Positions 4,026-56,490 of a DNA stretch of 64,000 nt are shown one piece after another (positions within the stretch are counted from its first letter, which is position 1; each line of letters starts with the position of its first letter). This DNA is from an uncultured Candidatus Saccharibacteria bacterium. GTDB lineage: Bacteria > Patescibacteriota > Minisyncoccia > Phycocordibacterales > GWA1-40-21. The DNA lies in the NCBI GenBank assembly GCA_964513515.1, contig CAZEMP010000003.1:40927-104926 (forward strand), read 5' to 3'. The notes below the pieces were generated by a model, which did not search any database, was not told where the DNA came from, and saw nothing but the letters and a program-made list of their open reading frames with translations. A program made the position numbers and the translations under genes.

Positions 4026-5387
4026 ATGAAAAGATTATTTATCGGGCTTTTTTATATTGGTTTATTGTCATTTCCGGCATTTGCAGGGGCTGTTATATGT
4101 GACTCAAATTTGGATGGTAAGACTGATCTAGAGTTGCAGGCTATATCCATTCAGTGTGATGCAGACCTTCTAGAGTTAAATAATAAGTTTAGTAGTACAA
4201 AACAATATTCGTCTGAGTTAGAAAAGGGAATTGCTGACTTAAATTATAATATTAAAAAAATACAATTAGAAATAAAAGCAAAAAACGCAAAAATCAAACA
4301 ACTTGGTGATAATATTGAAGTAAAAACAGAATATATTGGAAAGCTTTCAGATAGAATGGAAGATATAAAAAGGACTATAGGAAAGATGTTGAGAGACACA
4401 TATTCTATGGATGACGCATCAATAATTAGTGTTCTTTTGTCTAGTGAAAATTTATCACAATTTTTTATTGACACAGATAATTACGGAACAATAAATCAAA
4501 AACTTCAGGATCTTATAGAAGAACTTTCTGGCGTAAAAAAGACTTCAGAGGAGGAGAAAAAAGATTTAGAGACAAAGCAAGCAAAAGAGGCAAAATTAAA
4601 ATATGAACAAGAGCAAGCAAAGAAAAAAACTGAAAGTTATAAGACAGAAAAACAAGCAATTTTATCACTAACAAAAAATAAAGAAGCTGAATATAAAAAA
4701 CTTATTGCAGAAAAAGAAAAACTAAAGAATCAAATAAGAAATAAGCTTTACAGAACATCTGGCGGGGTAGAAATATCCTTCGGAGACGCATTAAAGATCA
4801 TACAACCATATGAAAGTACAATTGGGGTGGATTCTGCTCTGGTCCTTGCGGTATTATTTCAAGAGTCTGCGGTAGACAATACAATTGGCAAAAATATTGG
4901 TAAATGTACTTATAATCAGCCATCATCATGCATAAATGGTAAAACTGTTATGTCTGACACACAAAAACCTACTTTTTTATCTATTATGAATAACCTCGGT
5001 CTTAATCCAAATGTTATACAAGTTTCCTGTGCAATATGTAGAGATGGAAATTATGGCGGGGCTATGGGTCCAGCACAATTTATGCCAGTGACTTGGGAGG
5101 GTATATCAAAAAGGGTTTCTAATATTATTGGGGTTTCTTATCCCTCACCATTTGAGAACCTTGCCGCATTCACTGCTTCCGCAGTATTGCTTAAGGACAA
5201 TCAGGATAGATGTAAAACTGCATTTAGTAAAAGAAATGACATTTGGTCATGCGCGGCATCTAAATATTACGGAGGTTTAAGTTTAAAGGGTAGTAAACTT
5301 ACAAATTTTATGCGTTATGGCTACGGAGCGTCAGTTTTAAAAAGAGCACTACAATTTGAAAAGGATATAGAGACACTGACTTTGTAG
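4026..5387 (+). CDS. secreted coiled-coil protein with C-terminal lytic-transglycosylase (SLT)-like domain
   Basis: Signal peptide LFIGLFYIGLLSFPAFA; long K/E coiled coil; C-terminal LFQESAVDN ... GAMGPAQFMP resembles SLT catalytic ES / GLMQ motifs. Confidence 0.55.
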   Translation: MKRLFIGLFYIGLLSFPAFAGAVICDSNLDGKTDLELQAISIQCDADLLELNNKFSSTKQYSSELEKGIADLNYNIKKIQLEIKAKNAKIKQLGDNIEVKTEYIGKLSDRMEDIKRTIGKMLRDTYSMDDASIISVLLSSENLSQFFIDTDNYGTINQKLQDLIEELSGVKKTSEEEKKDLETKQAKEAKLKYEQEQAKKKTESYKTEKQAILSLTKNKEAEYKKLIAEKEKLKNQIRNKLYRTSGGVEISFGDALKIIQPYESTIGVDSALVLAVLFQESAVDNTIGKNIGKCTYNQPSSCINGKTVMSDTQKPTFLSIMNNLGLNPNVIQVSCAICRDGNYGGAMGPAQFMPVTWEGISKRVSNIIGVSYPSPFENLAAFTASAVLLKDNQDRCKTAFSKRNDIWSCAASKYYGGLSLKGSKLTNFMRYGYGASVLKRALQFEKDIETLTL

Positions 5388-8809: not shown

Positions 8810-9217
8810 ATGAAATGTATAAACTGTAAAACAGAATTGAAGAGACGTTCCCAGATAAAATATTGTTCAAATAAATGCCAAATAGAACATCAGTATAAAA
8901 AGTACATAATTCAATGGAAAAAAGGTAAGAAAGATGGTACAAGAGGAATTTTAACTAAAAATATTTCAAAATATATAAAAAGATATTTTATAGAGAAAAA
9001 TGGAGAATCTTGCGTTTTGTGTGGTTGGAATAAAAAAAATTTATCGACAGGAAGAGTGCCGCTTGAAATCGATCATATTGATGGTGATTCAGAAAATAAT
9101 CTGGAAGAAAACTTAAAGCTTATTTGTCCAAATTGTCATTCACTTACAACAAATTTTAGGAATCTAAATAAAGGCAAAGGTAGGTTGTGGAGGAAAAATA
9201 AATATATTAGAAAGTAG
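8810..9217 (+). CDS. HNH endonuclease with N-terminal zinc ribbon
   Basis: CINCKTEL...C..C zinc ribbon; IDHIDGDSENN...LICPNCH HNH motif; extended -10 tggtataat just upstream. Confidence 0.75.
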   Translation: MKCINCKTELKRRSQIKYCSNKCQIEHQYKKYIIQWKKGKKDGTRGILTKNISKYIKRYFIEKNGESCVLCGWNKKNLSTGRVPLEIDHIDGDSENNLEENLKLICPNCHSLTTNFRNLNKGKGRLWRKNKYIRK

Positions 9218-36863: not shown

Positions 36864-38534
36864 ATGACTCAAAAAGATGCACTCGACATATTGAAGATGG
36901 GATACAACTGTTACATCACAGGTGCAGCAGGTTCTGGTAAAACACATCTACTAAATGAATATATAAAATTCCTTAAAAATAAAGGAGTTGAAGCCGGTAT
37001 TACAGCATCTACCGGTATTGCAGCGACTCATATGGGCGGTACGACTATTCATTCTTGGAGCGGGCTTGGTATTCGTGATGAGCTTACAGAATACGATCTT
37101 GAAGATCTAGAAAGTAAAAAATATCTCCATGATAGATTTAAAAATACCGATGTCCTCATCATAGACGAGGTTTCAATGCTCCATCATTTTCGTCTGGACT
37201 TAATAGAGAAAATCGCAAGACATTTAAAAAGGAACCAACTTCCGTTTGGTGGCATGCAAGTTATTCTTTGCGGAGATTTTTTCCAGCTTCCACCAGTATC
37301 AAGAATGGGCGAAAGAGAAGCACTTTTTTCTTATAAATCAGAAATTTGGAAAAATCTCAATTTGAAAATCTGTTATTTGGAGGAGCAATATAGACATAAG
37401 GATAATATTTTCATAAAAATTCTCAACGGCATACGCGGGAACAATATGAGTGAAGAATCTTTATCTCATCTAAGAGGAAGACATAATGCAAAATTAAAAG
37501 AAGGATTGGAACCAACAAAACTCCATACTCATAATATAAATGTTGATACTATAAACGATGGAGAATTAAACAGTCTTCCTGGTCAGATTTTTACATATCA
37601 GATGGAAGATAAAGGAAGAAAGGCCCTTGTAGATGCACTGAAAAAAAGCTGTCTTGCACCCGAATTATTGCGTTTAAAAGTTGGTGCAAGGGTGATGTTT
37701 GTTAAAAATAATTTTGATGGGGGCTATGCAAATGGAACTCTTGGAAAGATAATAGAATGTTCAAATTATGGCCCCAAAGTATTGCTTACTTCGGGGAAAA
37801 TAATTATTCCAGAAAAAGTCTCTTGGGTTATAGAAGAAGATGGAAAAGTAAAAGCCACTATCACTCAATATCCGCTTCGTTTGGCTTGGGCCATCACTGT
37901 ACATAAAAGCCAAGGAATGAGCTTAGATGCAGTTGAGGTAGATCTTTCAAAATCTTTTGAAAAGGGAATGGGTTACGTTGCTCTTTCTCGTGTAAGGACA
38001 CTAGACGGACTCAGACTTATCGGTATGAACAAGAACGCCTTAGAAGTGAGCGAAGATATTATGTTGTATGATGAGGATCTTAAAGAAATGTCTGATCAAG
38101 ACAAATCCTGGCTATATTCCATGTCTGATACTGAAATAAAGAAAAAACAAGAAGAGTTTTTGAAGAAAGTTGCACCGCCCGAAGGTACAAAAATTGATAA
38201 AAAGAAAAAAAGTAGAATTTCACCAATTGAGGAAACAAAAAATATGCTCAAGCAAGAAATGGGGCTAAAGGAAATGTTGGAAATAAAAGGTGTAAAAATT
38301 GGAACACTACTTGATCATATAGAGAAGATTATTGTAGATGAACCAGATTTTAATATTGCTCATTTGAAAAAGGAAGTGCCAACTGGAAAATATAAAAAAA
38401 TATGGATGGTATTTCGTGAACTTTATGGAGAGAATCGTGATTTTCTGCTTTCTCCAATAAAAAATAAGCTTGGATCAGCTTATACATATGAGGAGCTAAG
38501 AATTGTAAGACTTTTTGTGAAGAGAAATCTTTGA
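36864..38534 (+). CDS. Pif1/RecD-family ATP-dependent DNA helicase with C-terminal extension
   Basis: Walker A GAAGSGKTH, motif ILCGDFFQLPPV, LAWAITVHKSQGMSLD; about 120-aa uncharacterised C-terminal tail. Confidence 0.75.
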   Translation: MTQKDALDILKMGYNCYITGAAGSGKTHLLNEYIKFLKNKGVEAGITASTGIAATHMGGTTIHSWSGLGIRDELTEYDLEDLESKKYLHDRFKNTDVLIIDEVSMLHHFRLDLIEKIARHLKRNQLPFGGMQVILCGDFFQLPPVSRMGEREALFSYKSEIWKNLNLKICYLEEQYRHKDNIFIKILNGIRGNNMSEESLSHLRGRHNAKLKEGLEPTKLHTHNINVDTINDGELNSLPGQIFTYQMEDKGRKALVDALKKSCLAPELLRLKVGARVMFVKNNFDGGYANGTLGKIIECSNYGPKVLLTSGKIIIPEKVSWVIEEDGKVKATITQYPLRLAWAITVHKSQGMSLDAVEVDLSKSFEKGMGYVALSRVRTLDGLRLIGMNKNALEVSEDIMLYDEDLKEMSDQDKSWLYSMSDTEIKKKQEEFLKKVAPPEGTKIDKKKKSRISPIEETKNMLKQEMGLKEMLEIKGVKIGTLLDHIEKIIVDEPDFNIAHLKKEVPTGKYKKIWMVFRELYGENRDFLLSPIKNKLGSAYTYEELRIVRLFVKRNL

Positions 38535-38570
38535 AATTATCTGTTATAATATTCCTATATGGAACAAGTG
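38490..38570. repeat. about 80-bp unit U (3' end of Pif1 CDS + -10/leaderless start region), intact copy
   Basis: gagctaagaattgtaagactttttgtgaagagaaatctttgaaattatctgttataatattcctatatggaacaag; second split copy at 40484-40520 + 40956-40993. Confidence 0.7.
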
Positions 38571-40463
38571 AACGATAATTTAGATACACCTCAAACGTCT
38601 AAATTTATAAAGTGGTATTTATTAGCCTCAATTATATTTTCTTTTACACAAATAATTCTGAATCTCTTTTTTTATTATCATAAAGTTCCTAGTTTTTTAA
38701 TGATTTTATGGTACACAATAAATTTTATATGGTTAGTTTTTAATATAGTTACTATCACGATAATATTTGTAAAGAAATTTAAAAAGAAGTATCTTGTTGT
38801 TCCAATTCTATATTTCTTAGAAAATCTTATTATTCCAATTGCAGTGATTGTAGCTACTATATTATACATTAATTTTTTAGGCATTGTTGAGCTAACTAAT
38901 AATGAAACATTACTAATTGCTATCACAATTTCTTCAGTTTTTTATTTAGGAATGACAATACTATCATGTCTGTTTATTTTTACATTACAAAAAAATAGTT
39001 TATTGTTATGGATAATCGGAGGAGTTGCTTTAGTATCTGTGGTTACGATTATTTTCCCGGTAATAAAATATTTTTCAAAGGATATAAATCAAGAGAAAAA
39101 ATATATTCAAACATCGGTAGAGACTATAAAAAGATCTTTGGCTGGTCCATCTCCAACTAAAAAAGATTGGGCAATTTATACAAATTTAGATTATAAATTT
39201 TCTATCGAGTATCCATGGGAATATGAAGCAGAAAATTATTATCCAGGTGGTACTTATATGAGTACATATGAAATTAATACCATAGATCTACCCACATTGG
39301 ATCCAGATAAGAAAATTTACCTTACTTTAATGACTTTCAGTGATACAAGTGTAAATGATTACAAAAAAAATTGGGAATATGTTGGTGGCAAACCAGAGGA
39401 GCTTCGTTTTTATTATTCACTCCCAAAAATGCGAGAGGCAATCACTTTATCTTTAGGACAATCTTGCCAGGTATTAGATGAAAATAATATTCGTTATTCA
39501 GAAGCGCCAAGTCGTCCTTGTACGGTGACTTCGATAGATGGACAAGTAGCACTTCAGATTATGCCAGCCCCATATTCTATTGATACTTATATAACTTACT
39601 TTATTCCAAGGGAAGATTCGATGTGGTTAGAAATTCGTAAGATTCCAAGTAGTTACAGTGATGAAGTAATGAATACCCTAAAACTTGAATCATTAACAGC
39701 ATCTCAAAATGTACAACAGTTAATTCAGCCGGTTTTAGTAAAAGATTTACAAGAAGAAACTTTAAAACAATTGGGGTGGTCATGGTATGGCCCAACTCCT
39801 GTTTATGGTTCCATTTTAGATTGGGCTGATATAAACACTCTTGAAATATACAAAGGTACTCCGTATGTTAAAGATAAAAATGGAGTATATAGTTCATATT
39901 TTGGTGGAATATCAAGAATGGAAGGAGCTGATCCAAATACATTTATTGTTTATAGTTATGAACTTGCAAAAGACAAAAATCATATCTACATTACTGGAGT
40001 AACAGAATATCCTCAGGATCTAGATGTGCCAACATTTCAAAAAGTTGGTGCGAATTATTTTAAAGATAAAAACTTAGTTTATTTAGGAGATGTAATTTTT
40101 GAAAAAAAATACAACCAGTTATCACATTGGCGTCTAGAAAAAATTTTGGAATTACATGCACCAACTTTTCAATATTTGAATATTTGTGGTTGTGTTGAAA
40201 AATCTTGTACTTTTTACACTAAAGATAAACAAGGTGTGTATTGTGGTTATGATAATAATTTTGAAAAAATTCAAGGAGCAGATTCTTCGACCTTTGAGTA
40301 TGTCGAATCATATTCTCCAGGTGAAATGTTAAATTCTGGTATCGCAAAGGATAAATTTTGTGTATATAACGGTGGCGAAAAAGTTGTTGATGCAAATAAT
40401 GTATGTATAAATCCTAGTACCTGTACAAGTGATAATTTGGTCGCCGGCTGTGGATTAAAATAA
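38559..40463 (+). CDS. polytopic membrane protein with C-terminal DKNYY-type repeats
   Basis: About 6 N-terminal TM helices; repeats DKNGVYSSYFGG / KDKNHIYITG / KDKNLVYLGD / KDKQGVYCGYD / KDKFCVYNGG resemble DKNYY family repeats. Confidence 0.55.
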   Translation: MEQVNDNLDTPQTSKFIKWYLLASIIFSFTQIILNLFFYYHKVPSFLMILWYTINFIWLVFNIVTITIIFVKKFKKKYLVVPILYFLENLIIPIAVIVATILYINFLGIVELTNNETLLIAITISSVFYLGMTILSCLFIFTLQKNSLLLWIIGGVALVSVVTIIFPVIKYFSKDINQEKKYIQTSVETIKRSLAGPSPTKKDWAIYTNLDYKFSIEYPWEYEAENYYPGGTYMSTYEINTIDLPTLDPDKKIYLTLMTFSDTSVNDYKKNWEYVGGKPEELRFYYSLPKMREAITLSLGQSCQVLDENNIRYSEAPSRPCTVTSIDGQVALQIMPAPYSIDTYITYFIPREDSMWLEIRKIPSSYSDEVMNTLKLESLTASQNVQQLIQPVLVKDLQEETLKQLGWSWYGPTPVYGSILDWADINTLEIYKGTPYVKDKNGVYSSYFGGISRMEGADPNTFIVYSYELAKDKNHIYITGVTEYPQDLDVPTFQKVGANYFKDKNLVYLGDVIFEKKYNQLSHWRLEKILELHAPTFQYLNICGCVEKSCTFYTKDKQGVYCGYDNNFEKIQGADSSTFEYVESYSPGEMLNSGIAKDKFCVYNGGEKVVDANNVCINPSTCTSDNLVAGCGLK

Positions 40464-40483
40464 ATTATTACTGTCACCTCTTA

Positions 40484-40520
40484 AGAGTTGAGAATTGTAA
40501 GACTTTTTGTGAAGAGGAAT
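40484..40520. repeat. copy 2a of unit U (duplicate of Pif1 3' end, noncoding here)
   Basis: gagttgagaattgtaagactttttgtgaagaggaat: 33/36 identity to 38494-38529. Confidence 0.7.
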
Positions 40521-40601
40521 TTATAATTAAATAAAAAGAGACCCGCCGTCTGCTCATAGTCGTAGATATTTTCCTTGACTAGATAGCGCGGCGGGCCTTT
40601 T

Positions 40602-40871
40602 TTACTTTTTTGAGAACAGGAGGATGTCGGCATATTCGCCTTTTTTCTCCTCCGATTTCGGGCAGTCATGCCAGAAACCGGCATGTTTATATCCCAAAGG
40701 TGCTTCATCGGGACCAGGGCTCTCCACATTGTTAAGGCATCTTGCTGTTCTCGTGACAAACGTCCGGTGGCCTTTTGAGATCAGCGTTTTGATCTTGGCC
40801 AACATCGCTCTTGCCTTGGCGGGGCTTTTGGGAAACTGCACTCCAACCAAGATGCTCTCTGACTCAGACAT
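40602..40871 (-). CDS. hypothetical 90-aa protein in GC-rich insert (SD-dependent)
   Basis: AAGGAGG 6 nt upstream of ATG (MSESESIL...); local GC >50%; large GC hairpin 40541-40596 adjacent. Confidence 0.45.
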   Translation of the reverse strand: MSESESILVGVQFPKSPAKARAMLAKIKTLISKGHRTFVTRTARCLNNVESPGPDEAPLGYKHAGFWHDCPKSEEKKGEYADILLFSKK

Positions 40872-40955
40872 ATACACCTCCTTGAGTTCTTTAAAAATAC
40901 TACTTTATTACTAAACTTTTGTCTATCGAATGATTTTTTATAATTTCTTATATAA

Positions 40956-40993
40956 CAAATCTTTTGCTATAATACTCTAATATGGAACAAGAA
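40956..40993. repeat. copy 2b of unit U (promoter/start region, now serving xfp)
   Basis: aaatcttttgctataatactctaatatggaacaag vs aaatctttga...tataatattcctatatggaacaag. Confidence 0.65.
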
Positions 40994-43330
40994 TTGGAGA
41001 ATATTAAAAAGTATGTTCGCGCAGCGAACTATCTTTCTGTTGGTCAGATCTATTTACAAAATAATTTTCTATTAAAGGACAAATTAAAATTTGATGACAT
41101 CAAGACTAGACTTTTAGGACATTGGGGAACATGTCCAGGTGTTAATTTTACATATGGCTGTTTAAACAATTTGATCATAAAAACAAATGCAAATATGATG
41201 TTTGTGCTCGGTCCAGGTCATGGTTTTCCTGCGATACAGTCAAACGTATTTTTAGAAGGAACTCTCAGTAAATATTATAAAGAAGCAGAGAAGAATGAAT
41301 CTGGTATAGCTTATATTACAAAGAATTTTAGCTGGCCTTATGGTTTTCCTAGCCACTCTAGTCCGGCAACCCCCGGGGTTATTCTTGAGGGAGGAGAGCT
41401 AGGATACTCACTTTCTACTTCATACGGAGCAGTTTTGGACAATCCAGACCTTATTGTAGCATGTCTTGTTGGTGATGGTGAAGCAGAGACAGCGGCTCTT
41501 GCTACATCATGGCATTTGAATAAATTTATTGATCCAGCAAAAAACGGTGTCGTACTTCCTATACTTCATTTAAATGGATACAAAATTTCTGGGCCAACTA
41601 TCTTTGGAAGAATGAAAAATTCAGATCTCAAATCTTTATTTAAAGGTTATGGTTACGAGCCCATTATTGTGGAAGGACATTCTGATAAAGTGTATGAGAA
41701 AATGGTAAAGGCACTAGACGAAGCCTATGCATCAATAAAAGCAATTCAAAAAGAGGCAAGAGAGAATCCGGATAAGCCACGAGAAGATTATTACAGATTT
41801 CCAATGATTGTTTTAAAAACTCCTAAAGGTTGGACCGGTATTAAGAGTTTGAAGGATGAAAAAATCGAGGGGAACTTTTTGTCTCATCAGGTTGTGGGTA
41901 AAGAAATGAAAACTGACAAAACTGAATTGAAAGCTTTGAATAAATGGATGAGATCTTATAAGTTTGATGAACTTTTTGATTCAACAAATGGTTTTATAAA
42001 AGATATTGAAGATAACATTCCAAAAGAAGGTTATAGAATGGGAGACAATCAAGTTGCATTTGGTATTAAAAAAGGGGATCGCTCTCGAGATTTAAATTTA
42101 CCAAAACCAGAAGACTTTGAGACAAAAGTCGGAGATACTGCTGGCTCAATGTACAAAATCGGCGCATATTTTGCAGAGGTAGTAAAATTAAATCAAGAAA
42201 AAAGAAACTTTAGATTATTCTCACCAGACGAGACATATTCAAATCGTCTTCAAGATATGTTTAAGTACACAACTCGTGCATTCACAGGAAAACTTGAGTC
42301 ATGGGATAAAGATATGTCACGTGATGGAAGAGTGATAGAAATGCTTTCTGAAAATTCATTACAAGGACTTGCACAAGGTTATGTCATAACTGGACGATAT
42401 GGTGTCTTTGCTTCATATGAATCTTTTCTTGAAATAGTTTCTAGTATGACCGAGCAATATAGCAAGTTTTTAAAAACAGCCAGAAAGACAGAGTGGCGCG
42501 GAGACATACCATCTCTCAATTATATTGTGTCTTCAACTGGATGGAGACAGGAACATAATGGATTCTCACATCAAAATCCAGGTTTTATAGACGGCTTATT
42601 GCAAAAAAATAATGATTTTACGAATGTATATTTTCCAGCCGATGCAAATGAGGCAGTTCTTATAGCTGAAAAATGTTTGTCTTCCAAGAACGAAATAAAT
42701 GTAATTGTTGCGGAGAAAACCTTTGAACCAACATGGCTTACAATGCAAGAAGCAAAATTGGAAGTTGAAAACGGTTTATCTGTTTGGAAGTTTGCATCTG
42801 ACGAGAATCCTGACATTGTAATCGCTGGTTGTGGGCAATATTTAACTAAGGAAGCTCTAGCCGCAGTTCAATTATTAAAAGAGGAAGTTGATAATGCAAA
42901 AATACGATTTATAAATATTGTAGAGCTTTCTCCAAACAGTGTTGGACATTCAAAGCGGATTACTCAATCAGAGTTTGAAAAATATTTTACAAAAGATAAA
43001 CCGGTTATATTTAATTTTCATGGATACCCAGAAACTTTAAAACAAATAATTTTTGATTACCAAAATGCCTTAGGAAGGATTTCTGTATTTGGATATATGG
43101 AAAGTGGATCAACTACGACACCACTTGATCTTCATATAAGAAATAAGACAGATAGATATAGTTTGCTTATAGAAGCAGTAGAAAAACTATCAAAAAGTGG
43201 AGTAGTGGCTCAGGATAAGGCCTTGAAAATAGTAGAGAAGTATAAGCATAAAATAAAAGATCATAAAGATTATATTATGAGAGTGGGGGATGATCCAGAA
43301 GAAATTTTGAATTGGAAATGGAAGAAGTAG
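40982..43330 (+). CDS. xfp: xylulose-5-phosphate/fructose-6-phosphate phosphoketolase
   Basis: LLGHWGTCPGVNFTYGCLN signature, TPP-binding regions, 782 aa. Confidence 0.9.
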   Translation: MEQELENIKKYVRAANYLSVGQIYLQNNFLLKDKLKFDDIKTRLLGHWGTCPGVNFTYGCLNNLIIKTNANMMFVLGPGHGFPAIQSNVFLEGTLSKYYKEAEKNESGIAYITKNFSWPYGFPSHSSPATPGVILEGGELGYSLSTSYGAVLDNPDLIVACLVGDGEAETAALATSWHLNKFIDPAKNGVVLPILHLNGYKISGPTIFGRMKNSDLKSLFKGYGYEPIIVEGHSDKVYEKMVKALDEAYASIKAIQKEARENPDKPREDYYRFPMIVLKTPKGWTGIKSLKDEKIEGNFLSHQVVGKEMKTDKTELKALNKWMRSYKFDELFDSTNGFIKDIEDNIPKEGYRMGDNQVAFGIKKGDRSRDLNLPKPEDFETKVGDTAGSMYKIGAYFAEVVKLNQEKRNFRLFSPDETYSNRLQDMFKYTTRAFTGKLESWDKDMSRDGRVIEMLSENSLQGLAQGYVITGRYGVFASYESFLEIVSSMTEQYSKFLKTARKTEWRGDIPSLNYIVSSTGWRQEHNGFSHQNPGFIDGLLQKNNDFTNVYFPADANEAVLIAEKCLSSKNEINVIVAEKTFEPTWLTMQEAKLEVENGLSVWKFASDENPDIVIAGCGQYLTKEALAAVQLLKEEVDNAKIRFINIVELSPNSVGHSKRITQSEFEKYFTKDKPVIFNFHGYPETLKQIIFDYQNALGRISVFGYMESGSTTTPLDLHIRNKTDRYSLLIEAVEKLSKSGVVAQDKALKIVEKYKHKIKDHKDYIMRVGDDPEEILNWKWKK

Positions 43331-43350
43331 TAAAAAGTTTTGTCTAAAAT

Positions 43351-44532
43351 ATGAATAAATACTTAATTGTAAATACAGGCTCTGTTTCTGCAAAATACGC
43401 AATATATTCTGAAAAATCAGAGTTATTTTTTGGACACTTTGAAATAGAAGTTGGTAAAGCAATAGCTACTTTTTATAAAGATGGAGATAAATCAAAATCG
43501 GAAACTATAAGTATAAGTGATCAAATATTTAAAAATTCTTTAGAATTTTTTATTGATGAAGCTATAAAAAATAATATTATAAAAAGTAAGAATGATATTT
43601 TTTCTATAGGTATTAGAATAGTTTCTCCAGGAACTTATTTTCAATCTGATAGAATTATTGATACTTCTTTTATATTGAAAATAACGAAAGAAAAAGATGA
43701 AGCGCCACGCCATATACCAGGTACTTTAAGAGAAATAGGCGAGATAAGAAAAATTTTTAAAGTGACCCCTATTATCGGTATATCAGATAGTGCTTTTCAT
43801 AATAATGTTCCAGATTTTGTTAAACACTATGCAATACCAAAGAAAATAGCAAAAGACTTGGACATATATCATTTTGGATATCACGGTATTTCAATAAGGT
43901 CCATCATTAAGAAATTATCAAGTAAAAAGAAACTTCCTAAAAGGATAGTCGTCTGTCATCTCGGTGGTGGTTTGAGTGTAGTTGCAGTTCGAGACGGTAA
44001 AACTTTTGATACATCAATGGGATATTCGCCTCTTGAGGGTCTTGTAATGTCCACTCGCGTAGGAAATATAGATCCAGTTGCCGTTATACATCTTGGACAA
44101 AAATTAGGTAAAAATAATAAAGAGTTAGAAGCATATTTTAACAATGAATGTGGACTTTTAGGGCTTTCTGGAAAAAGTTCTGATGTTCGAGATCTGATAG
44201 AGCTTGAAAAAGATGGGCATGAGGATTCCAGGCTTGCGCTTGAGAAATTTGTAATGAGTATTAAAAAATATATTGGTTCATATATTGCAGAAATGGGCGG
44301 TATAGATACTTTAGTATTTTCCGGAACGATAGGGGAAAGATCATTTATTATGCGAGATAGGATTTGTGATGGTTTGGAATCATTGGGAATCAAGATAAAC
44401 AAAAGAGTAAATAATAAAACAGTTGGTATTGATAGGAAAATAAGCACTTTGTTCTCAAAAGTTGAAGTTTTAGTTGTTTGTACAGAAGAGATGAAGGATA
44501 TGGCAGAAAGATTAAATCAGTTTAAAGTATAA
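43351..44532 (+). CDS. ackA: acetate kinase
   Basis: MNKYLIVNTGSVSAKYAIY N-terminus; VVCHLGGGLSVVAVRDGK; ASKHA fold; follows xfp. Confidence 0.9.
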   Translation: MNKYLIVNTGSVSAKYAIYSEKSELFFGHFEIEVGKAIATFYKDGDKSKSETISISDQIFKNSLEFFIDEAIKNNIIKSKNDIFSIGIRIVSPGTYFQSDRIIDTSFILKITKEKDEAPRHIPGTLREIGEIRKIFKVTPIIGISDSAFHNNVPDFVKHYAIPKKIAKDLDIYHFGYHGISIRSIIKKLSSKKKLPKRIVVCHLGGGLSVVAVRDGKTFDTSMGYSPLEGLVMSTRVGNIDPVAVIHLGQKLGKNNKELEAYFNNECGLLGLSGKSSDVRDLIELEKDGHEDSRLALEKFVMSIKKYIGSYIAEMGGIDTLVFSGTIGERSFIMRDRICDGLESLGIKINKRVNNKTVGIDRKISTLFSKVEVLVVCTEEMKDMAERLNQFKV

Positions 44533-55368: not shown

Positions 55369-55447
55369 GTAAAACGTGATGGATGATTTATCAACCAGTC
55401 ATGTTTATGAACATCAACCAGAAGTTTAAGGAGCAAGGAGAAACAGC

Positions 55448-56224
55448 ATGAAGATCGTGAAAGTGCAGTTGAAGGATCTGAAGACGAACCTGTTCGTTCG
55501 ACAGGCGCTCAACCAAGACCACGCGCTTCGTCTGGCCGAGCTGATCGATGCGGGGGTGAAGCTCCCGCCGATCTTGATCACGGATCAGAGGGTCGTCATC
55601 GACGGCCGCCATCGCATCGAGGGGTACGATCTCAACAAGGTCCTCGAAGTCGAGGCCGAGGTCATCCACGTCGACAGCCAGGCCGACATGATCGCGAGGG
55701 CCTTCCTGGCCAACGTCGGAGGCGCGCTGCCGCCGACGAAGGAGGACTTGGAGCACACGGTGAAGACCATGCTCGAGCTCGGCGAGAGCAAGAAGAGCAT
55801 CGCGGAACGGCTGAAGCTCCCGATGGGCTTGGCTCGGAAGTACGTCAATTCCGTGCAGGCACGCATGATGCACGCGAAAAACGAGCGGGCCATCTCGGCC
55901 GTCTTGAACGGCGGGATGAGCGTGGCCAAGGCCGTGGAGTTGCACGGGGCGGACATGGCCGCGGTGAAGCACAAGCTCGGCGGCGGTCGCAAGCCGAAAA
56001 AGGGCATCCAGGAGATGCACCGGGCGCTCACCCAGACCCAGAAGTCCTTCGGTTCGAAGAATGCCGCGCTCTTGCGCAGCCTTCTCGAGAAGTACGAGGA
56101 CGGTGAGGTCTCGGCCAAGCAGGTCCAGGAGATCATCGAGCACCTCGAAGACCTCCAGCGCGGGCAGGCCCGCAACCTGGCCGACTGGAAGAAGCGGTTC
56201 AACGGGCTGTTCAAGAAAGCCTAG
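55448..56224 (+). CDS. ParB-like nuclease (ParB/Srx N-domain) + HTH protein (island ORF C)
   Basis: LPPILITDQRVVIDGRHRIEG ParB-box-like; HTH SIAERLKLPMGLARKYV; about 63% GC; AAGGAG SD. Confidence 0.6.
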   Translation: MKIVKVQLKDLKTNLFVRQALNQDHALRLAELIDAGVKLPPILITDQRVVIDGRHRIEGYDLNKVLEVEAEVIHVDSQADMIARAFLANVGGALPPTKEDLEHTVKTMLELGESKKSIAERLKLPMGLARKYVNSVQARMMHAKNERAISAVLNGGMSVAKAVELHGADMAAVKHKLGGGRKPKKGIQEMHRALTQTQKSFGSKNAALLRSLLEKYEDGEVSAKQVQEIIEHLEDLQRGQARNLADWKKRFNGLFKKA

Positions 56225-56241
56225 TTCAACCACTGAAATAC

Positions 56242-56283
56242 AAATGCCCCGGACGCGCTTGCGCGTCCGGGGCATTCTTTTTA
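56242..56283 (+). terminator. GC-rich hairpin terminator ending the island
   Basis: aaatgccccggacgcgc-tt-gcgcgtccggggcattt + ctttttta. Confidence 0.8.
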
Positions 56284-56490
56284 TACTTTATTTTTATAAA
56301 AATTCACAACCATTTGACAAAAATGACTTTATTTGCTACTATCAATAAGTAAATAAATCTCACTTAGAGATTATCTCACTGATTAAGCGTAAGAACACAT
56401 GTCGCCGAATCCGTGCGACATTTTTACATTTAATAATACAACCTATTTTAAATAGGTCTAATAAATCTTTAGTTACAAAATTTCTAGTAT

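Follow-up and report, generated by a model that had tools for sequence, protein, structure and literature searches.

Introduction

The microcin H47 island of E. coli lacks an integrase, is bounded by extensive imperfect direct repeats and has hybrid attachment sites at several identity segments, and its excision and integration, both RecA-independent, have been shown experimentally (PMC3191183, PMC5426353). Homology-facilitated illegitimate recombination (HFIR) and orphaned 3' ends are known from Acinetobacter, S. pneumoniae and P. stutzeri, and have been proposed for the effector-immunity arrays of type VI secretion systems (T6SS) and for Rhs loci (PMC5361080). The locus described here shares traits with both kinds of system. 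It lies in a 64-kb stretch of DNA from an uncultured member of the Patescibacteria (contig CAZEMP010000003.1 of GenBank assembly GCA_964513515.1; the whole stretch is called the window, and all coordinates refer to it), in which a gene for a protein with DKNYY repeats, the DKNYY gene or cargo gene, stands between the pif1-like helicase gene pif1 and the phosphoketolase gene xfp and is flanked on both sides by copies, U1 and U2, of a short unit U that consists of the end of pif1, a promoter and the start of xfp.

Patescibacteria, also known as the candidate phyla radiation (CPR), have tiny genomes with few recognisable mobile elements, and gene gain is poorly documented in them. We consider it fairly probable that a single DKNYY gene was inserted at a short pif1-xfp junction with duplication of the target, and that the copies of this target later recombined with functional junction alleles.

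The duplicated unit

The initial annotation had described a direct duplication of about 80 bp flanking the DKNYY gene, and this duplication is confirmed. When the 430 nt at 40527-40956 are taken out, U1 (38493-38568) aligns without gaps to U2 (40485-40526 plus 40958-40991) with identity at 63 of 76 positions, 36/42 in the pif1 part and 27/34 in the promoter/start part. The alignment contains an exact core of 26/26 nt (38499-38524 and 40491-40516), which in a blastn-short self-comparison reaches an E value of 4e-8 against the whole window and is the only strong off-diagonal match of the region. A repeat search gave 38484-38528 versus 40476-40520 (45 nt, 84% identity) and 38534-38568 versus 40957-40991 (35 nt, 80% identity); the leftward extension of U1 to 38484 is weak and possible only. 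In pattern searches, each half of U occurs exactly twice in the 64 kb, with no occurrence expected in shuffles, and the similarity between the sequence after the pif1 stop and the sequence before xfp has p = 0.0005 in a shuffle test. The similarity is thus well above chance, and the exact core together with the colinearity of the halves rules out chance or convergent promoter similarity. The coordinates first given for the repeats were right within a few bases, with the segment that splits the second copy measuring 430 bp and not about 435.

In U1, the left part (38493-38534) comprises the last 13 codons of pif1, ELRIVRLFVKRNL, and the stop; next comes a spacer of 24 nt, in which TGTTATAAT at 38542-38550 is the extended -10 box, and the right end is ATGGAACAAG at 38559-38568. 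The second copy is divided into U2a, which still reads ELRIVRLFVKRNL plus stop in an open frame and aligns with the pif1 3' ends of relatives at 80-91% identity, and U2b, which carries the extended -10 box TGCTATAAT at 40965-40973 and ATGGAACAAG at 40982-40991. The motif aaatcttt at 40957 aligns with the spacer after the stop in the first copy and not with the pif1 coding end.

An assembly artefact is ruled out by an independent ENA contig (L001, from ERZ27284378), which is 100% identical to the window over 38472-43643, and by a diverged strain with the same junctions (L082, see below). L001 is a MEGAHIT k139 contig that starts 21 nt upstream of U1; this start may reflect strain heterogeneity or a recombination breakpoint at the pif1 3' end, and a coverage effect is equally possible. 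The 9-nt sequence TTTATAATT, which is present on both sides of the 430-bp segment, is within chance for AT-rich DNA.

A cargo gene behind the start of xfp

The first bases of the DKNYY gene (from 38559) and of xfp (from 40982) are ATGGAACAAG in both cases, and a TGnTATAAT box ends 8 nt before them, which bears out the earlier observation that the two genes share the same -10 box and the same MEQ codons. The 8 nt between box and ATG contain no Shine-Dalgarno sequence. Translation of the DKNYY gene cannot begin before the ATG at 38559, because an in-frame stop is present at 38547. With this only possible start codon being part of the duplicated unit, the gene relies on copied xfp sequence for its promoter and its first 3-4 codons; its start codon and first three codons derive from xfp, and the capture of the xfp promoter and start that had been proposed initially is upheld.

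The layout TTGTTATAAT-N6-8-ATG is also present upstream of xfp in seven relatives (L003, L004, L005, L006, L008, L009 and L086), and about 20 other long open reading frames (ORFs) of the window have a -10-like box 4-9 nt before the start. The DKNYY gene is probably driven by one of the promoter copies, giving a predicted leaderless mRNA. Across the window, a TAnAAT box 4-9 nt before the start, with no room for a Shine-Dalgarno sequence, precedes many long ORFs, for example those starting at 8810, 11239, 16934, 35748, 45590(-), 46166(-), 56597, 62690(-) and 62831, which suggests that leaderless transcription is widespread in this genome.

Empty sites and other cargo in related genomes

With the Pif1 protein as query against a set of one genome per species, 80 related loci were obtained, which come from metagenome-assembled genomes (MAGs) of Paceibacterota/Patescibacteria. 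At the ten closest (L002-L009, L020 and L057), Pif1 is 84-88% identical and the order rnr-trmD-pif1-xfp-ackA is conserved, and the gaps between pif1 and xfp measure 24, 123, 173, 540, 630, 673, 701, 732, 1295 and 1395 nt. L003 is an empty site, in which the pif1 stop, 24 nt with the promoter and the ATG of xfp follow one another (...GAAGAGAAATTTATAA-AATTGTTTGGTATAATATCTGTAT-ATGCAACAAG). A second empty site, L086, belongs to the lineage with the closest Pif1 found (92%), and its spacer, AAATTATCTGTTATAATATT, is identical to that of U1. Both sites have TG(G/T)TATAAT in the 24-nt spacer and a single U between pif1 and xfp. Related genomes in which pif1 is directly followed by xfp, which the initial annotation had suggested looking for, thus exist, and they have the same extended -10 box. 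The DKNYY gene and ORF91, a small ORF in the 430-bp segment, are absent from all 80 related loci (tblastn, blastn), and none of 11 relatives has the DKNYY gene at the site; the opposite case, a DKNYY gene between pif1 and xfp in all relatives and without flanking repeats, was not seen.

The spacers of other relatives contain unrelated small cargo: a 103-aa ORF (L004), a 197-aa membrane protein (L005), a 198-aa and a 101-aa ORF (L006), an ArsR-type HTH protein (L007), a 190-aa GDVSNI-repeat protein (L008, L020), and a 189-aa ORF with a GDVSNI-repeat protein (L057). The pif1-xfp junction is therefore an insertion hot spot. No significant duplication flanks the cargo in nine relatives according to the shuffle test, which is significant for the window only; apparent decayed promoter copies in L004 and L008, a visual impression, failed the same test. 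In L007, a 29-nt perfect direct repeat, CAAATCATTCGCTAAAAAAGGCGAATGAT, which is itself a hairpin, flanks the ArsR-like cargo at 4862-4890 and 5283-5311 and makes this the second repeat-bounded cargo at the hot spot, with a repeat different from U.

The flanking pif1 end is also a place of exchange. The Pif1 proteins of L085 and L086 are 99.6% identical, and the content downstream differs, L086 being an empty site. At the nucleotide level, 10 differences fall into the last 76 nt of pif1 versus 32 into the other 1595, and this clustering at the 3' end indicates that exchange breakpoints fall there. Further differences between the two form a few internal pif1 patches, which point to recombination tracts.

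The same insertion in a diverged strain

In a search of 5.8 billion proteins, only two meaningful homologues of the DKNYY protein were found, P0002 (82% identity) and P0003 (40%), the latter on a contig of unrelated context (L083). P0002 is encoded on L082, a 2003-nt Logan contig of SRR22387851 with 82% amino acid and 85% nucleotide identity, which starts TCTGTTATAATATTCCTATATGGAACAAGAATACGAT... and ends ...TAAATTATTACTGTCATATCTTAATAATCGCAAGACATTTGTGAAGAGAAATCTTTAAAATTATCTG. It agrees with the window in the 5' fusion and in the 3' flank, behind which a pif1 relic is again present. As both insertion junctions are present, the insertion predates the split of the two strains. Between them, the DKNYY gene has 0.46 synonymous substitutions per synonymous site (dS) and 0.09 non-synonymous substitutions per non-synonymous site (dN), with dN/dS about 0.2; the gene is thus functional and under purifying selection, and the split is old. 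Over 13 nt, ATGGAACAAGAAT, the fusion of L082 is identical to the xfp allele of the window itself, which occurs in none of 11 relatives. Because this allele is that of the present lineage only, the fusion was made in this lineage, from its own junction DNA.

Logan contigs are derived from a k=31 de Bruijn graph, so that all their 31-mers are distinct (PMC12424806). The first 30 nt and the last 30 nt of L082 overlap by the 4 nt TCTG, and joined there they give a contiguous U. Immediately before the last 30-mer, the contig has A in place of the T of pif1, and the first 30-mer ends one base before the cargo stops matching the xfp of the window (13 nt in common); we take this 2-nt offset to mean that the xfp of this strain, itself unobserved, would already differ there. 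The contig would then represent a unique segment bounded by an uninterrupted exact repeat of 56 nt, with a second copy that is apparently unsplit. The contig ends are compatible with U-DKNYY-U on the chromosome and also with a circle that coexists with an empty site. U1 agrees with the repeat rebuilt from L082 at 54 of 55 positions and U2 at only 45 of 55 (right of the 26-nt core). The relic of L082 starts 7 nt away from that of the window, and its left part is altered, with residue- or frame-changing hits. Host contigs of L082 were sought through Pif1 homologues and cluster members, and the nearest Pif1 proteins (92%; L084, L085 and L086) belong to another lineage.

Could the locus be a mobile element in the narrower sense? 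Direct repeats at the 3' end of a gene, with the element supplying a synonymous replacement end, are the classical signature of islands and prophages. This signature is present here, pif1 being intact through U1 with its displaced terminus at U2a, and the two copies share the 26-nt identical core. A degenerate, cis-mobilisable island could in principle have integrated site-specifically at the pif1 3' end, U1 and U2 being attL and attR and the integrase acting in trans. The repeat, however, includes the promoter and first codons of the neighbouring gene, which is chromosomal junction DNA and not a dedicated attP. A recombinase is found neither in the interval enclosed by the repeats nor in the flanks of about 8 kb each (the region and not the whole genome), the only ORFs between the repeats are the DKNYY gene and ORF91, neither of which has a recombinase domain, there is no tRNA near the locus and no Rfam match, and the other cargoes of the hot spot are without such repeats. 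We therefore regard site-specific integration as extremely unlikely. A transposon or insertion sequence is not indicated either, as there is no transposase domain and no inverted repeat pairing the ends of the insert, and the duplication measures 76-85 nt versus 2-15 bp. As regards integron cassettes, there is no integrase and no Rfam or structured-element match in 38000-41500 (E<=1), and the near-palindrome TCACCTCTTAAGAGTTGA in the cargo's 3' flank (palindrome at 40465-40500) has no conserved counterpart in L082.

How the second copy was formed

The six differences between U2a and U1 over 42 nt are all synonymous (CTA>TTG, AGA>AGG, CTT>TTA and TGA>TAA), whereas six random substitutions keep the peptide and the stop in only about 1/10,000 simulations (about 1e-4). 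At a dS of 0.46 between the cassette lineages, a neutral relic should hold several non-synonymous or frame-breaking changes. The synonymous-only relic thus indicates that the right-hand copy was brought in by homologous recombination, its source being another pif1-xfp junction allele that was functional, and that it did not arise by decay of a duplicate in situ.

This bears on an alternative of the initial annotation, a segmental duplication followed by gene replacement, which is contradicted insofar as it implies duplication and neutral decay, since all relic differences are synonymous although the cassette is old. In its general form, this alternative assumes a duplicative insertion in situ, or a tandem duplication with gene replacement, followed by vertical descent with independent decay of the copies and by a later arrival of the GC-rich segment. 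It would be the simplest history, it agrees with the start allele ATGGAACAAGAAT being this lineage's own, and the second copy of L082 appears unsplit. Nevertheless, a neutral relic of 42 nt should by now be damaged, a perfect 56-nt repeat in L082 would be very improbable, and U2 would not be expected to be so much further from the cassette-linked allele than U1 (45/55 versus 54/55), so that we consider this history very unlikely.

The recombination reading set out in the Introduction accommodates these data better. Starting from the repeat, the empty sites, the shared junctions, the purifying selection on the cargo and the synonymous-only relic, all of which are plain observations, we infer the following course. 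A DKNYY gene would have been inserted into the 24-nt pif1-xfp junction of a Paceibacteria-type (Patescibacteria) chromosome, with a target duplication of about 76-85 nt that comprised the last 13 pif1 codons and the stop, the extended -10 box and 10-13 nt from the start of xfp. In this way pif1 would have retained an undamaged 3' end, the cargo would have been placed in frame behind the xfp start on one promoter copy, and xfp would have kept the other copy. This fusion, which carries the lineage's own xfp allele and is shared with the strain at a dS of 0.46, would have arisen in this lineage, and the first U-DKNYY-U arrangement could be due to a template switch or to DNA capture at the joint of a tandem duplication. 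Instead of decaying independently, the repeat copies would afterwards have undergone recombination with functional alleles of the pif1-xfp junction. From within the 26-nt core onwards, the right-hand side in the window would accordingly be the native junction of a different allele, with the last pif1 codons, the stop, a terminator, the ORF91 cargo, the xfp promoter and xfp, and it would have been joined to the cassette by homologous recombination. That the repeats show an allele mosaicism of the kind that recombination at U would make is supported by the sequence comparisons.

Which route could this recombination have taken? The options are a RecA-type excision and reintegration of a 2-kb circle, i.e. 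a Campbell integration, an import of linear DNA by double crossover, and an anchored import with one illegitimate join; all three give the observed product and cannot be told apart.

The initial annotation had pointed to a single-crossover integration of a circular DNA carrying U. The repeats around the insert, the single U at the empty sites and the allele mosaicism agree with this idea, but it is one of several routes, no circle is demonstrated, and the origin of a U-bearing circle is left unexplained. In the strict version, a circle of about 2 kb with the DKNYY gene and one U, formed by recombination of the flanking repeats, would integrate by a single crossover at related pif1-xfp junctions. 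Each integration would make two reciprocal chimeric U copies, and in the window the host junction would already have held the ORF91 cargo. The topology of the product is exactly as predicted; right of the core, U1 is the cassette allele of L082 (54/55), whereas U2 is a different intact pif1 end followed by native-type cargo. Both junctions are conserved in two diverged strains, repeated cycles would explain why the relics look as if fresh from a functional pif1, and the H47 island is a precedent (PMC3191183, PMC5426353). On the other hand, neither a circle nor a circular junction was observed, and a perfect identity of only 26-56 nt is a poor substrate for recombination by RecA. Linear DNA would give the same product by a double crossover, which is the usual route after DNA uptake, and the first U-DKNYY-U arrangement would still have to be explained. 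For the comparison of reciprocal chimeras, the part left of the core offers only 6 codons, which are unlike the relic of L082. This strict version thus appears possible, if doubtful.

If single genes bounded by U excised as circles, re-entered by homologous recombination at U and were expressed on arrival, the junction would function as an integrase-free "promoter-trap" site. It would then be integron-like, with RecA and about 30-60 nt of homology replacing IntI and attC. This extension is speculative and we think it quite unlikely.

The left part of the relic leads to the third route. In HFIR, an incoming pif1-U-DKNYY fragment would be anchored on the resident pif1 by homology, and its other end would be joined illegitimately within the resident pif1 3' end, possibly at AAGAG, a candidate microhomology that is visible only against the alleles of relatives. 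The last 13 codons and stop of the resident gene, its spacer cargo, the promoter and xfp would thereby be pushed downstream as an orphaned remnant. This would explain why the whole relic, including the 6 codons on the left, is an intact pif1 terminus with synonymous differences only, and why it is directly followed by a terminator and native-type cargo; the 7-nt distance between the relic starts in the window and in L082 could reflect independent joins, and orphaned 3' ends are known from T6SS effector and Rhs loci (PMC5361080). Yet the two strains agree in the cargo's 3' flank as far as TCTTAA, so that independent joins would need one donor end point. The donor would already need the fusion of the DKNYY gene to the xfp start, which merely moves the problem of origin back, and such events are orders of magnitude rarer than homologous exchange (cited in PMC5361080). 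We consider this route rather unlikely.

Several points weigh against the course proposed here. The maker of the first duplication is unaccounted for, and no donor context for the DKNYY gene was found, the next homologue being the 40% identical protein on L083. The repeat structure of L082 is deduced from the contig ends, with no read-through. No closer relatives and no empty sites with the MEQE allele were found in Joint Genome Institute (JGI) metagenomes with two DNA patterns, the databases searched contain no relative above 92% Pif1 identity, and phylogenies of the left versus the right side have no resolving power. A crossover in the 26-nt core would make the left part of the relic cassette-borne and neutral, but this part, GAGTTGAGAATTG, is intact in the window, while it is 7 nt shorter and altered in L082; its intactness concerns only 6 codons and fits an illegitimate join at AAGAG about as well. 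Finally, the promoter and the leaderless start are predicted from consensus sequences, as is the terminator, and a sigma-70 scan that requires a -35 box flagged neither 38542-38550 nor 40965-40973.

Cargo, GC-rich segment and neighbourhood

The DKNYY protein has an N-terminal multi-pass hydrophobic region (about residues 16-174 in a hydropathy scan) and C-terminal DKNYY repeats, with three stretches matching the Pfam family DKNYY (PF13644) at 55.4 bits (cut-off 25) and E 1.3e-14, which establishes family membership. Its gene has a somewhat lower GC content (29.9%; 18.9% at third codon positions, GC3) than its neighbours (35% and 25-27%, respectively); the GC of the genome is given as 34%. The distance from this gene to xfp amounts to 518 nt of non-coding and small-ORF sequence, the greater part of which is the 430-bp segment.

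The initial annotation had noted that the second copy of U is split by GC-rich DNA, and the segment does fill precisely the space from the relic stop (40524-40526) to the promoter spacer. Its interpretation as a later insertion is disfavoured. The segment has no similar DNA in the 80 related loci, and its position between pif1 stop and xfp promoter is that of the cargo in L004, L005, L006 and L009; such DNA is more readily explained as the normal spacer cargo of a native allele of the pif1-xfp junction than by a later event that interrupted the second copy. The stem-loop at its left end has a folding energy of -31.7 kcal/mol (z = -4.2; 0/200 shuffles fold as well), and would suit an intrinsic terminator that acts in both directions, on the DKNYY transcript and on ORF91.

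ORF91 is clearly foreign in composition (GC 49%, GC3 58%). It probably starts at the ATG at 40871 (89 aa), with the strong ribosome-binding site AAGGAGGTG ahead, which stands out in a genome where many genes look leaderless. A word-based search finds only the protein itself, whereas HMMER finds nine cluster representatives (P0016-P0024) among 1.84 billion proteins, which are 36-50% identical and share the motif CLN..ESPxPD..GFxHDC. Judged from these sequences, ORF91 belongs to a small, rare and uncharacterised family of proteins of about 90 aa; it has no Pfam match even at E<=10 and no tblastn match to phages or plasmids, and the contigs of its homologues are too short to inform on context. 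An assignment as a GNAT fragment is unsupported.

Features of the locus in window coordinates
Feature	Coordinates	Strand	Basis or remark
pif1-like helicase gene (556 aa)	36864-38534	+	Pfam PIF1 (E 7e-38), HTH_40, Pif1_2B
Repeat copy U1	38493-38568	+	pif1 end, 24-nt spacer, ATGGAACAAG; repeat and pattern searches
DKNYY cargo gene (634 aa)	38559-40463	+	Pfam DKNYY, 55.4 bits
Cargo 3' flank, TAA-ATTATTACTGTCACCTCTTAA	40464-40484	+	common to L082; right-hand illegitimate junction
Repeat copy U2a, relic of the pif1 end	40485-40526	+	repeat search, blastn-short, codon comparison
GC-rich (43.5%) segment, 430 bp	40527-40956		composition; between relic stop and xfp promoter
G+C-rich long stem-loop	40534-40603		RNA fold; A-run and T-run at its sides
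ORF91	40602-40877	-	called as a gene in L001 too
Repeat copy U2b, xfp promoter and start	40957-40991	+	repeat and pattern searches, shuffle test
xfp phosphoketolase gene (782 aa)	40982-43330	+	Pfam XFP_N, XFP, XFP_C
Acetate kinase gene	43351-44532		after xfp; Pfam Acetate_kinase

Within about 8 kb on each side, the locus is surrounded by housekeeping genes, namely those for RNase R-like protein, S16, KhpA, TrmD, Pif1, XFP, acetate kinase and a DAO oxidoreductase, and the order rnr-rpsP-khpA-trmD upstream of pif1 in relatives is syntenic with the window. Three observations concern the surroundings only. The acetate kinase gene ackA falls into two allele classes in comparison with the window, 72-78% identical in L003, L004, L005 and L007, and 44-49% in L002, L006, L008, L009, L020 and L057, with xfp being 75-81% identical in all ten, which suggests a xenologous replacement of ackA in part of the clade. 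At 10001-11672 of L020, a long-read MAG, pif1 and rnr align in several frame-shifted pieces, and the frameshifts are probably homopolymer sequencing errors and not signs of pseudogenes. In the window itself, about 900 bp at 55400-56300 have 56-65% GC and contain overlapping long ORFs (55391-56275 on the minus and 55448-56224 on the plus strand), none of them with a Pfam match; foreign origin or a peculiarity of composition may account for this.

Comparison with known systems

The locus is a fresh example of known recombination processes in a little-studied phylum and reveals no new mechanism. It is a case at base-pair resolution, in which a 24-nt junction appears as a repeatedly used insertion hot spot, the cargo would be made expressible through a duplicated promoter and start, and the allele mosaic of the repeats would record homologous exchange between strains. 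The extra twist is that the duplicated target includes the promoter and start codon of the neighbouring gene, so that the cargo arises as an in-frame fusion. As a worked example, it may also warn annotators of relic gene ends and duplicated promoters.

Like the H47 island, the locus is a small cargo unit with imperfect direct repeats that contain identity segments, with hybrid repeats and without a recombinase of its own. It differs in that it is known from sequence alone, carries a single gene and resides in a Patescibacteria MAG, and in that its repeat is the target's own duplicated gene end together with promoter and start codon. As in the product of a Campbell integration, direct repeats stand on both sides of the insert, their sequence occurs once at empty sites, and the copies look chimeric; in contrast to the textbook case, there is very little homology, an exact stretch of 26 nt in the window and about 56 nt in L082, and the first U-circle is unaccounted for.

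With the loci attributed to HFIR it has in common a conserved upstream anchor gene, new cargo downstream and a displaced resident 3' end that is kept. There, what is displaced are toxin C-termini and immunity genes, which have a selective role, whereas the 42 nt left of a helicase gene here have none that is obvious, and the duplication extends to the neighbour's promoter and start. As in flexible islets and other hot spots, the cargo differs in nearly every relative, and mosaic breakpoints are found in the flanking pif1 3' end. Unlike the usual flexible islets, however, this hot spot measures only about 24 nt when empty, its cargoes are single small genes, and the DKNYY gene is fused to the start codon of the gene downstream.

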